NCBI GenBank assembly: GCA_029250685.1
Contig: JAQXEU010000025.1
Location: 23,536-87,535 of the forward strand
Source of the DNA: Polaribacter sp.
GTDB lineage: Bacteria; Bacteroidota; Bacteroidia; Flavobacteriales; Flavobacteriaceae
Direction: 5' to 3'
Length of the DNA: 64,000 nt
Of this stretch, positions 33,342-43,032 are shown piece by piece. How positions within the stretch are numbered: position 1 is the first letter of the stretch; the number at the start of each line of letters is the position of its first letter. The position numbers and the translations under genes were made by a program. The notes under the pieces are model-generated. The model was not told where the DNA came from, ran no database searches, and saw only the letters and a program-made list of their open reading frames with translations.

Positions 33342-34805
33342 TTAATTCTCTTTTATAATTAAATCTGACACAATTTTTCCTGAAATTAATGATGGCGGAA
33401 CTCCAGGTCCAGGGACAGTTAATTGCCCTGTAAAAAATAAATTCTTTACTTTTTTACTTTTAATTTTTGGTCTTAAAAATGCCGTTTGAGTTAAAATATT
33501 TGCCAAACCATAGGCATTTCCTTTATATGAATTATAATCTTTTATAAAATCATTTACACAATAAGATTTTTTAAATATAATATTTTCTTTTTCATTTTGA
33601 TCTGTTAATTTTTCTAATCTATCTAAAATCTTAGTAAAATATTCTTCTCGTAACTCCTCTGTATCATCCAAACCAGGGGCTAAAGGAATTAAAAAAGTCG
33701 CTGCTTCTTTTCCTTCCGGGGCTAAGTTATCGTCTGTAATACTGGGAAAACTTGCATAAAAAAGAGGTTTTTCTGGCCAAGATGGATTGTCATATATTGT
33801 TCTTGCATGCTCATCAAAATCAGTGTCAAAAAATAATGTATGATGAGATACATTTTTTAATTTTTTATTTAAACCTACATAAAACAGCAATGAAGATGGT
33901 GCGAAAATTTTCTTGCTCCAATATTTTTCTGAATATTGTCTATACTTTTCAGGCAATAATGTTTCTGTATGATGATAATCAGCACCACTTACTACAATAT
34001 CAGATTCTATAAAGACATCGTTTACAATTAAACCTGTTGTTTTTCCATGTTCATCAACACATATTTCTTCTACATTAGCATCGGTTTTAAAAACCACCCC
34101 TAAACTAGAAGCTAAAGTTGTCATTGCTTCTACAACTTTATACATTCCTCCTTTTGGATGCCAAGTTCCCAAACCAAAATCTGCATAATTCATAAAATTA
34201 TAAAAAGCAGGTGTATTGTCTGGCTTTGCTCCTAAAAAAAGGACAGGGAATTCTAAAATCTGAATTAACTTTTGGTTTTTAATTTTTTTACGAACTTGAG
34301 TTCTAATTGTAGAGAAAAACTGATTAACTCTTTTAATTGTTACAGGAGTTATTAACTCTAAAGGAGAAACTCCTGGTCTATAAACCAAATCCTTAATTGC
34401 TGTATTATAATTGAATTTTGCAGCATCTAAAAAATCTTTAAGGTGCTTAGAGCTACCCTTCTCTTCTTTTTCAAAAGCTTCAAAAATTTCTTTTAATTTT
34501 CCAGATATCAAGATAGACTCTTGTTCAGAAAAGTACACTTGATATGCAGGATCTAAACGATCTAACTCGTAATAATTAGAAGGTTTTTTATTAAAATCAT
34601 TAAAGAATTTTTCAAAAACATCTGGCATCCAATACCAAGTTGGACCAATGTCAAAAGTGAAACCTTCTTTTTTATATTGCCTTGCTCTTCCTCCAGTGGT
34701 TTTGTTTTTCTCGTAAACAACAACATCAAAGCCAGCCTGTGCTAAATAACAAGAAGCTGCTAATGATGAAAAACCGGAACCTATTATATGTATCTTTTTT
34801 TTCAT
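33342..34805 (-). CDS. crtI: Phytoene desaturase (start re-called at ATG 34805)
   Basis: IIGSGFSSL FAD motif, GGRAR, FDIGPTWYWMPD, GQLTVPGPGVPP. Confidence 0.95.
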   Translation of the reverse strand: MKKKIHIIGSGFSSLAASCYLAQAGFDVVVYEKNKTTGGRARQYKKEGFTFDIGPTWYWMPDVFEKFFNDFNKKPSNYYELDRLDPAYQVYFSEQESILISGKLKEIFEAFEKEEKGSSKHLKDFLDAAKFNYNTAIKDLVYRPGVSPLELITPVTIKRVNQFFSTIRTQVRKKIKNQKLIQILEFPVLFLGAKPDNTPAFYNFMNYADFGLGTWHPKGGMYKVVEAMTTLASSLGVVFKTDANVEEICVDEHGKTTGLIVNDVFIESDIVVSGADYHHTETLLPEKYRQYSEKYWSKKIFAPSSLLFYVGLNKKLKNVSHHTLFFDTDFDEHARTIYDNPSWPEKPLFYASFPSITDDNLAPEGKEAATFLIPLAPGLDDTEELREEYFTKILDRLEKLTDQNEKENIIFKKSYCVNDFIKDYNSYKGNAYGLANILTQTAFLRPKIKSKKVKNLFFTGQLTVPGPGVPPSLISGKIVSDLIIKEN

Positions 34806-34807
34806 TT

Positions 34808-34824
34808 TGTTAAACAAATGTACA
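34808..34824 (-). promoter_or_regulatory. crtI promoter -7 box (TACATTTG) overlapped by a candidate CarH/LitR operator TGTACA-N5-TTAACA
   Basis: 16/17 identical to the box at 35771-35787. Confidence 0.7.
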
Positions 34825-34859
34825 AATTAATTAAACAAAATAAATTGTTTTGTTTAACT

Positions 34860-35756
34860 TTATAAAACTTTTAACAAATCAAACAGACCATTATAAAAGG
34901 AAAAAGAACTTTTATATTTTTTTGGATTTTGATCTGATATGCGATGGCTAAAAACCCAAAGCTCATGTTCAGAGTTCTTTAGCTTATCATCAATGGTGTT
35001 TAAGTAATCATCAACAGCAGAATCTACAGGAGAAACAGTGAATGAAGTTACAAAGTTAATTTTAGAAAACATTGCCATTAAAGAATTTAAATTATCTTCT
35101 GGGATGCTTTGTCCTAAATATATCGTTTTTTTACCTCTCAATGATAATTCATAATTTAAATACATTAAACCAAGTTCATGAATTTCATTTTCTGGCAAAT
35201 ACAAAACAAAAACCTGACTATCATCTAATAGCAAATTTTGTTGAATACTCTCTGTGTTGATTTGTATTTTTTGAGAGATTAAACTTGAGATAAAGCGCTC
35301 ATGAGCAGGTGTTAATGTATTCGTTTGCCACATTAAACCTATATGATTTAAAAAAGGTATAAAAACATCTTTAAAAACATCTCTAAAGGTTTTGTTTATT
35401 AGTAATTGATTGTATGTTTGATTAAACAATGCTTGATCAAAACTAAACATTGACATTTTAAAAGAATTGATAGAGTCATCTACCAAAGAATTTTTACTCG
35501 CTAATTCTCTTGCTATTAAAACAATAGAATCTTCAGATAATTTTGCGATTTTAGAAATCTTATAATTGTACTTATTTAATAAAGAAACATTTAATAATTT
35601 TTGAAGATTCTTAGTATCGTAATACCTGATATTTCCATTTGTTCTTTCCGGAGTTAAAATTTGGTACCTTTTTTCCCAAATTCTAATGGTATGAGCTTTG
35701 ATTCCTGTAAGATTTTCCAAATCTTTAATTGTGAAATCGGTTTTAATATTGTTCAA
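34860..35756 (-). CDS. MerR-family B12-binding repressor (CarH/LitR-like); start re-called at TTG 35756
   Basis: IKDLENLTGIKAHTIRIWEKRY HTH; W-x9-ER helix bundle; EIHELG cobalamin lower-ligand motif; directly upstream of crtI. Confidence 0.9.
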   Translation of the reverse strand: MNNIKTDFTIKDLENLTGIKAHTIRIWEKRYQILTPERTNGNIRYYDTKNLQKLLNVSLLNKYNYKISKIAKLSEDSIVLIARELASKNSLVDDSINSFKMSMFSFDQALFNQTYNQLLINKTFRDVFKDVFIPFLNHIGLMWQTNTLTPAHERFISSLISQKIQINTESIQQNLLLDDSQVFVLYLPENEIHELGLMYLNYELSLRGKKTIYLGQSIPEDNLNSLMAMFSKINFVTSFTVSPVDSAVDDYLNTIDDKLKNSEHELWVFSHRISDQNPKKYKSSFSFYNGLFDLLKVL

Positions 35757-35770
35757 CTTAAAGTATTTTA

Positions 35771-35787
35771 TGTTAAACAAATATACA
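35771..35787 (-). promoter_or_regulatory. merR promoter -7 box (TATATTTG) overlapped by a candidate operator TGTATA-N5-TTAACA
   Basis: Near-identical to the crtI box; an extra TGAACA lies 21 nt further on, over the start codon. Confidence 0.7.
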
Positions 35788-35875
35788 CTTTTAAATTTAA
35801 TGCAAAATAATTCAAGAAGAATTCTGTAACATTTTCTATTTTTGAGCTACCTATATGATGAACTAACAAATTATA

Positions 35876-36370
35876 ATGCAAAAAGATTTAGAGACTAAAT
35901 TTTTACTGGATTTTGAACAAAATCAAAATATTGTTCATAAAATATGTAGAATGTACACTACAAATCAAGACGCACATAATGATTTGTTTCAAGAAGTTGT
36001 AATTCAATTGTGGAAAAACTATAGCAAGTTTAGAGGGGATTCAAAATTTAGTACATGGATGTACAGAGTTGCGCTAAACACTGCAATTTCTTTATATCGA
36101 AAGTCAACAAGAAGCATCAAAACTCAAGATATTGATGATTTTACCTACAAAATAAAATCTAGTGAGTATGATGATACTGAAGAATTACAGTTAAAAGCAC
36201 TATATAAAGCTGTGCATCAATTAAATGATATTGATAAAGCTTTAATCTATTTGTACCTAGAAGATAAACCATACAAAGAGATTTCAGAAACTTTAGGTAT
36301 TACTCAAGTGAATGCTAGAGTTAAAATGAATAGAGCAAAAGATAAATTAAAAAACATATTAAACCCATAA
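35876..36370 (+). CDS. ECF sigma factor
   Basis: DLFQEVVIQLW, SKFSTWMYRVALNTA, region 4 YKEISETLGI..VNARVKMNRAK. Confidence 0.93.
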   Translation: MQKDLETKFLLDFEQNQNIVHKICRMYTTNQDAHNDLFQEVVIQLWKNYSKFRGDSKFSTWMYRVALNTAISLYRKSTRSIKTQDIDDFTYKIKSSEYDDTEELQLKALYKAVHQLNDIDKALIYLYLEDKPYKEISETLGITQVNARVKMNRAKDKLKNILNP

Positions 36371-42927: not shown

Positions 42928-43032
42928 TAGGTTTTTATCTAACTATATAGAATATTTATATCATTTAACTGCTTCAATTAACTATAATAACTATTTTTGT
43001 TTAAACTTAAAAGTAAAACATTAAACATTATT

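Follow-up and report, generated by a model that had tools for sequence, protein, structure and literature searches.

The operators of the class I regulators of Thermus thermophilus (TtCarH) and Bacillus megaterium consist of three and four tandem 11-bp direct repeats, respectively, of the form nAnnTnnACAn (PMC8156234, PMC9304148), and the hexamer recognised by the domains of the CarH family is TnnACA (PMC8156234). The class II LitR proteins of Pseudomonas (PplR1 and PmlR2) have sites of the type TGTACA-N12-TGTACA, one of them over the -35 element and another between the start site and the start codon (PMC9758184). In Myxococcus xanthus the CarA/CarH operator at Pcrt is large (~55 bp) and covers a carotenoid promoter, and inverted repeats were originally noted in it (PMC9304148); later work ascribes the binding to direct repeats on which dimers cooperate. 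A search of the literature gave no description of a CarH operator from Bacteroidota or of the inverted layout reported here. The present study concerns a stretch of 64,000 nucleotides from Polaribacter sp., family Flavobacteriaceae (the whole stretch is called the window below), in which a 32-bp inverted repeat lies over the promoters of crtI, encoding phytoene desaturase, and of the adjacent gene for a MerR/B12 regulator of the CarH/LitR class I type. Judged from the sequence, the repeat is probably the operator of this regulator.

The repeat has the form TTGTTTAA-N16-TTAAACAA, with its TGTnnA and TnnACA cores 24 bp apart (Table 1). An earlier note on this DNA had pointed out two 17-mers, TGTACATTTGTTTAACA before crtI and TGTATATTTGTTTAACA before the regulator gene, and had taken them for a shared CarH-type operator built of TnnACA direct repeats with an 11-bp period (TnnACA-N5-TnnACA), in which the Bacteroidota -7 box TAnnTTTG is embedded. 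Both 17-mers were found in the sequence, 16 of their 17 bases being identical, and the idea of a shared operator that overlaps the -7 box and start region of both genes stood, but the layout proved to be that of an inverted repeat. In the 17-mer at crtI two variable bases precede the -7 box, after which comes most of the right arm; in the one at the regulator gene two variable bases are likewise followed by the -7 box, here with the left arm and a non-conserved CA. The two are thus opposite arms (right at crtI, left at the regulator gene) of two copies of the putative 32-bp operator. The right and the left arm look alike here because of a T/A swap at crtI, where TTTAACAA stands for TTAAACAA (a variant also found in one relative, L006), together with the TTTG of the adjoining -7 box.

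At the regulator gene the right arm TTGAACAA contains the TTG start and the codons following it (TTG AAC AAT, M-N-N), this TTG being the only plausible start ahead of the helix-turn-helix. First codons that lie inside the right arm would account for the use of a start other than ATG as well as for the N-terminus MNNIK, which is unusually conserved between genera. The two extra hexamers listed in the earlier note, both on the minus strand, are real as well: TGAACA (35750-35755) is part of TTGAACAA, the conserved right arm at the regulator gene, and TAAACA (34851-34856) is part of an isolated TTAAACAA half-site, which stands in everted orientation to the crtI left arm and has no conserved counterpart in relatives. 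Around the latter hexamer no further full operator could be found with up to three mismatches. In the third copy of the operator in the window the left arm merges with a -7 box, TATTTTTG, and 4 nt separate the end of the site from the ATG (43033) of a gene of the ArsC family.

The genome assembly of the organism (2,221,857 bp, 61 contigs, 30.8% G+C) was scanned for both arms at all spacer lengths between 8 and 25 bp, mismatches being counted out of the 16 arm bases. With a spacer of 16 bp four perfect and five one-mismatch sites were obtained, compared with no perfect and zero to four one-mismatch sites for each of the other spacers, and all nine spacer-16 sites are intergenic. They precede crtI, the regulator gene, the ArsC-family gene, two GLPGLI/Porph_ging genes, a gene for a TonB-dependent receptor, a fasciclin gene and two divergent pairs, one consisting of a TetR_C_23 regulator and an SDR gene and the other of an extracytoplasmic function (ECF) sigma factor and a DUF2452 protein. 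Counting both strands, the same assembly holds 3700 TAnnTTTG boxes, and only two of them carry the extension TTTAACA, namely the crtI and regulator copies, which are also the only two matches of the degenerate 17-mer TGTAnATTTGTTTAACA. A common occurrence of this extension at unrelated -7 boxes was what the earlier note had named as speaking against an operator; no unrelated box has it. The shorter TTTAA directly follows 24 of the 3700 boxes, about as many as expected from base composition, and 5 of these 24 are operator sites. When the 17-mer itself was used in a mismatch scan of this genome, only AT-rich intragenic near-matches were obtained and no regulon emerged; one near-match of that scan, on contig C5, is a perfect inverted repeat.

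Orthologous loci were taken from 40 relatives and 66 named genomes and were all oriented on the regulator gene, the relatives being mostly Polaribacter together with Tenacibaculum, Maribacter, Aquimarina, Lacinutrix and Pontimicrobium. With up to three mismatches the inverted repeat is present at both fixed places in nearly all of 96 loci. With up to two mismatches it was found in 58 of the regulator promoters and 68 of the crtI promoters of the 90 loci used for pattern counts. Of 93 unique loci, 63 have the regulator operator exactly at -24 relative to the start codon, and the crtI operator lies between the regulator stop codon and crtI, with a spacer that is constant at 16 bp. Logos of 75 crtI sites and 69 regulator sites gave the consensus sequences TTGTTTAA-ttaaT..t-TAtaTTTG-TTAAACAAA and TAnaTTTGTTtAA-N16-TTGAACAATAT, respectively, and in Lacinutrix and Pontimicrobium the right arm that holds the start codon reads ATGAACAA as compared to TTGAACAA. 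Conservation within the -7 box is 96% for the T, 92% for the A and 88–91% for the TTTG among the crtI sites, and 96%, 93% and 100% among the regulator sites. Eight relatives (L007, L010, L011, L013, L015, L017, L024 and L026) keep both arms without any TAnnTTTG in the spacer; the arms persist without the -7 box there, and the element is therefore not merely the promoter consensus.

The assignment of the regulator to the CarH type, on which the earlier note had relied, is borne out by its domains, by its best matches in both sequence and fold, and by the conservation of the W, the E and the lower-ligand His. Searches against Pfam identified a MerR helix-turn-helix (PF13411, E = 7e-14; PF00376, E = 2e-9), in which residues 8–57 align to residues 27–76 of TtCarH, and a B12-binding_2 domain (PF02607, E = 4e-7), PF02310 being above the cut-off of E = 0.001. 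The best sequence match in the PDB is TtCarH (E ~1e-11). A model made with AlphaFold2 (AF2; predicted local distance difference test score, pLDDT, 86) had full-length TtCarH (5C8D/E/F) as all of its top 12 Foldseek matches, and the B12 domain alone matched TtCarH with a template modelling (TM) score of 0.83 and a root-mean-square deviation of ~3 Å. The MerR helix-turn-helix is followed by a four-helix bundle, which carries GLMW-x8-HER, and by a Rossmann-type B12 domain; GxxxP is present, and the lower-ligand motif EIHELG aligns to H177 of TtCarH, the pattern ExHxxG being kept in 92 of 94 orthologues. The motif Wx9EH, found in 86 of the 94, is here Wx9ER, with W and E kept and the capping His replaced by Arg (residues ~143–154), and one orthologue has EN. 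Wx9ER is shared by four close Polaribacter relatives (L031, L033, L034 and L035) whose proteins are 75–80% identical to that of the window, and directly after the W, Gln takes the place of H132 of TtCarH here. The operators are intact in the genomes with ER, and the regulator is therefore presumably functional in them.

The regulator is present in 174 of the 201 Flavobacteriaceae genera sampled. Carriers of the regulator (n = 20) have on average 5.05 sites, as against 0.6 for a reversed control pattern, while non-carriers (n = 20) have 1.45 sites as against 1.0 for the control (carriers versus non-carriers, Mann-Whitney p = 1.8e-5). Three non-carriers appear to be exceptions. In G169, crtI and the operator are found on a contig of 1.9 kb whose first 194 bases resemble the C-terminus of the regulator, as judged by reading and not by alignment, and this genome appears as an exception because the regulator gene is cut by the contig end. 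G147 has six one-mismatch sites, none perfect, four of which are two repeated sequences. Both of these exceptions are thereby accounted for; the remaining one, G146, is returned to below. The core of the operator half-site, TAAACA/TTAACA, corresponds to the CarH-type TnnACA. In a divergent subfamily of regulators (30–34% identical) the recognition helix is G-I-x-K-L/I-V/N-L-R-T/S-W-E as compared to G-I-K-A-H-T-I-R-I-W-E, and in four of six loci of this subfamily (L030, L167, L168 and L170) the sequence TTGTATAA-N16-TTATACAA was found, with the same 8-N16-8 geometry and, in two of the four, directly upstream of the divergent regulator gene. The half-site thus changes together with the recognition helix of the regulator. 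L030 and L167 each harbour two tandem copies of TTGTATAA-N16-TTATACAA.

When sixty further sites from twelve genomes of relatives were collected, the adjacent genes clustered and representatives of several clusters annotated with Pfam, the box was found upstream of genes for fasciclin (18), GLPGLI (6), TetR-like regulators (6), an unannotated 140-aa family (6), DUF2867-SDR proteins (3) and flavin reductases (3). GTP cyclohydrolase I (folE), a peroxiredoxin and CIA30 are single cases. In two Polaribacter genomes, L118 (G010) and L144 (G022), it is located at the divergent promoter of rhodopsin and blh (beta-carotene 15,15'-dioxygenase), which would place phototrophy based on retinal under the control of this switch too. 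The genes rhodopsin/blh and folE, the photolyase-linked genes and those for peroxide defence fit a regulon for light and photo-oxidative stress, and folE and photolyase of Pseudomonas are likewise light-induced via LitR (PMC9758184). A subgroup of fasciclin-type sites has a third, central TTTAAC ~12 bp before the right arm (TTGTTTAA-ttattTTAACtttttaTTAAACAA) and a -7 box ~20 nt downstream of the site; it comprises C60:9262, C24:87188, L107, L120, L143, L146, L161 and L136, mostly before fasciclin genes, and may represent a three-contact variant of the operator.

Three registers of the operator relative to the promoter were distinguished, with start sites deduced from the position of the -7 box. 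In the first, the -7 box is within the spacer, directly before the right arm, and the site extends from about -29 to +3; crtI and DUF2867 belong here, as do some of the fasciclin and GLPGLI genes. In the second, the -7 box and the left arm are fused and the site, from about -7 to +25, extends to the start codon; this is the arrangement at the regulator gene and the ArsC-family gene, and also at the TonB receptor and at one of the GLPGLI genes. In the third the -7 box follows 3–22 nt downstream of the right arm and the site covers the -33 region, as seen for the TetR-like regulator and for flavin reductase, and likewise for the 140-aa family and one subgroup of fasciclin genes. Overlap with the core promoter in all three registers is as would be expected for a repressor. 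Metatranscriptome contigs are short and lie over the gene bodies of crtI, the regulator and the ECF gene, showing expression in seawater; none crosses the two promoter regions, and they are too sparse to place start sites. In promoters of Bacteroides and Flavobacterium the usual distance between the -33 and -7 elements is ~19 nt. The left arm was also considered as a -33 element and rejected, there being only 13 nt between its G and the TA of the -7 box, and the arm being kept without a -7 box.

By homology to the described systems, repression in the dark and release in the light would be expected. In the dark a two-fold-symmetric, B12-bound oligomer would place two DNA-binding domains on the outer arms and cover the core promoter. 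At crtI this would enclose the -7 box within the spacer, with the right arm on the start site, and at the regulator gene the left arm would be on the -7 box and the right arm over the TTG start codon. In the light the oligomer would be lost and repression lifted from crtI-crtB-crtZ-crtY-TspO-Gpx-SRPBCC-photolyase, from the regulator gene and from about seven further promoters of this genome. Physical binding, repression, the dependence on B12 and on light, the oligomeric state and the start sites are what we infer here. The occlusion of the -7/start region and the autoregulation put forward in the earlier note agree with the overlap of the site with both promoters, which makes autoregulation likely, while the direct-repeat geometry attached to them does not hold.

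Table 1. Location of the putative operators, their parts and the surrounding genes (positions in the window)
Feature	Position	Strand	Remarks
crtI operator	34807..34838	minus	C44:58342, 1 mismatch; one base from the crtI ATG (34805)
crtI operator, left arm TTGTTTAA	34838..34831	minus	
crtI operator, spacer	34830..34815	minus	
crtI operator, right arm TTTAACAA	34814..34807	minus	
crtI -7 box TACATTTG	34822..34815	minus	inside the 16-bp spacer
17-mer at crtI, TGTACATTTGTTTAACA	34824..34808	minus	ends 2 nt before the crtI ATG
Regulator operator	35749..35780	minus	C44:59284, 1 mismatch; putative autoregulation site
Regulator operator, left arm TTGTTTAA	35780..35773	minus	followed by a 16-bp spacer
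Regulator operator, right arm TTGAACAA	35756..35749	minus	
Regulator -7 box TATATTTG	35785..35778	minus	fused to the left arm
17-mer at regulator gene, TGTATATTTGTTTAACA	35787..35771	minus	14 nt before the in-frame TTG (35756..35754)
Third operator copy, TTGTTTAA-N16-TTAAACAT	42997..43028	plus	between prfB and the ArsC-family (Spx/ArsC-like) gene
Isolated half-site TTAAACAA	34850..34857	minus	just after the regulator stop, 12 nt upstream of the crtI left arm
Regulator gene, 298 aa	34860..35756	minus	CarH/LitR class I-type (Pfam, TtCarH alignment, AF2/Foldseek, motif census)
Wx9ER motif of the regulator	35293-35330	minus	
crtI (phytoene desaturase)	33342..34805	minus	first gene of the putatively repressed cluster; ATG 34805..34803
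Cluster of ten genes	ends 28586	minus	regulator, crtI, crtB, crtZ, lycopene cyclase (crtY), TspO, glutathione peroxidase, SRPBCC-like, photolyase
ECF sigma factor	35876..36370	plus	divergent from the regulator, as is a 213-aa membrane protein, also plus
ECF-type promoter-like motif GTAACA-N15-CTACCTA	35826..35853	plus	ahead of the ECF sigma/membrane-protein pair

Other explanations of the repeat have to be weighed against that of an operator of the adjacent regulator. The earlier note's own reading, in which direct repeats of 11 bp are arrayed about the -7 box and the arm 24 bp away is incidental, can draw on the crtI copy, which does fit TnnACA-N5-TnnACA, on a reading of one strand that gives one good and two degenerate repeats at 11-bp steps and on published CarH operators that can work with one or two good repeats plus pseudo-repeats (PMC9304148). 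The corresponding upstream hexamer at the regulator gene is, however, TGTATA and not TnnACA, and the pattern was found at only 1 of 90 regulator promoters and 5 of 90 crtI promoters of the orthologous loci. According to the logos the upstream hexamer at crtI is conserved only as -7 box (outside the box it has C in 13% and G in 23% of the sites), and at the regulator promoter the C and the A needed to complete TTAACA occur in 43% and 36% of the sites. As the distal arm is conserved as well as the proximal one and the fixed 16-bp spacing is uniquely enriched genome-wide, this reading is very unlikely; the genome-wide scan and the comparison with relatives, both proposed in the earlier note, speak for a shared cis-element but against its direct-repeat form. 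It is extremely improbable that there is no operator at all, either with the likeness of the 17-mers due to a strong Bacteroidota promoter consensus or with the repeat forming an RNA hairpin in the 5' leader. The -7 consensus does account for six specified bases of the 17, and the regulator repeat folds better than shuffled sequences (-8.6 kcal/mol, z = -2.1), but the rarity of the extension among the -7 boxes, the arms conserved without an adjacent box and the enrichment limited to spacer 16 argue against this reading. The crtI left arm, for its part, is upstream of the -7 box and would be untranscribed, the fold at crtI (z = -1.35) is not above shuffles, and the position of the repeat with respect to the -7 box differs from promoter to promoter, which is consistent with a site on DNA but not with a structure in the leader. 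A hairpin or terminator, the folds being weak, was rejected on position.

A real inverted repeat bound by some other transcription factor, co-inherited with the carotenoid/light locus, is likewise unlikely. It would be in line with the correlative nature of the co-occurrence, with the several regulon genes that lack an obvious link to light and with the sites of the non-carrier G146. Against this, the box sits on both the promoter and the start codon of the regulator itself in most loci, a layout typical of autoregulation, the half-site has the CarH-family core and it changes with the recognition helix in the divergent subfamily. The only other regulator of the regulon, the TetR-like one, fails the profile test, being absent from 7 of the 20 carriers, which keep their sites, and present in G113, which has none; the neighbouring ECF sigma factor has a conserved asymmetric promoter motif of its own.

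Several observations nevertheless weigh against the repeat being the operator of the CarH-type regulator. The proposed binding geometry is without structural precedent, the characterised class I CarH proteins binding direct repeats (PMC8156234, PMC9304148). At the regulator gene the right arm overlaps coding sequence and part of its conservation could be at the protein level. Among the nine sites of this genome those at the two GLPGLI/Porph_ging genes, the TonB-dependent receptor and the ArsC-family gene have no obvious light link, and the three AT-rich one-mismatch sites in the non-carrier G146 are unexplained. The co-occurrence of sites and regulator is compatible with another factor that is always inherited together with it. 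Finally, with Arg in place of the His that caps adenosylcobalamin (AdoCbl) and Gln after the W, B12 binding and photochemistry may differ from those of TtCarH.

Compared with CarH of Thermus thermophilus and Bacillus megaterium (PDB 5C8D/5C8E/5C8F) the order of domains, the W, E and lower-ligand His and the TnnACA core are the same, as is the position of the operator over core promoters, both those of carotenoid genes and that of the gene for the regulator. The site here differs in that its two half-sites are inverted, 24 bp apart and separated by a centre that is largely non-specific, and in that it lies over the Bacteroidota -7 box and start, sometimes over the -33 region, in place of the σ70 -35 and -10 elements; the protein differs in having Wx9ER for Wx9EH and Gln at the position of H132. 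With the class II LitR proteins of Pseudomonas, which also are repressors of the LitR/CarH family, the bipartite symmetric pair of TGTnnA/TnnACA hexamers is shared, and the two placements of their sites relative to the promoter match those found here (PMC9758184). Their hexamers are 18 bp apart and read TGTACA, as opposed to 24 bp and TGTTTA here, and they lack the Rossmann B12 domain and sense light via a partner LOV protein, whereas the protein of the window has the full class I architecture. The operator of Myxococcus xanthus resembles the present one in covering a carotenoid promoter and in the inverted repeats first noted there, and differs in size and in the direct-repeat layout of the later work; CarA is moreover B12-independent and has the antirepressor CarS, which is absent here.

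The divergent ECF sigma/membrane-protein pair on the other side of the regulator gene is preceded by a promoter-like motif of ECF type, which in the relatives reads approximately TGTAACA-N14-15-CTACTTATA, is present in most of the Polaribacter relatives and does not overlap the operator. A near copy was found on contig C7 (minus strand, 9126), ~180 nt upstream of an M23 peptidase gene, and one metatranscriptome contig starts at 35865, 11 nt before the ATG of the ECF sigma factor.

In the sunlit ocean the Flavobacteriaceae are one of the principal groups that break down algal carbon. As a tentative picture, which we regard as possible, a two-fold-symmetric CarH oligomer of Bacteroidota would bind inverted TnnACA half-sites 24 bp apart, across a centre that is mostly non-specific, in at least three -33/-7 registers, control a wide marine light regulon and include a subclade of sensors with Arg for His. 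If this mode is true, the regulon would comprise carotenoids, rhodopsin/blh, pterin synthesis, peroxiredoxins and fasciclin proteins. Such a geometry of CarH on DNA, unlike the tandem-repeat mode of the Thermus crystals, would bear on B12 photoreceptors and on the optogenetic switches made from them. Genome scans with a model of 11-bp direct repeats would miss these sites, and the 32-bp operator would offer a sequence rule by which light regulons may be predicted from genomes throughout the family.

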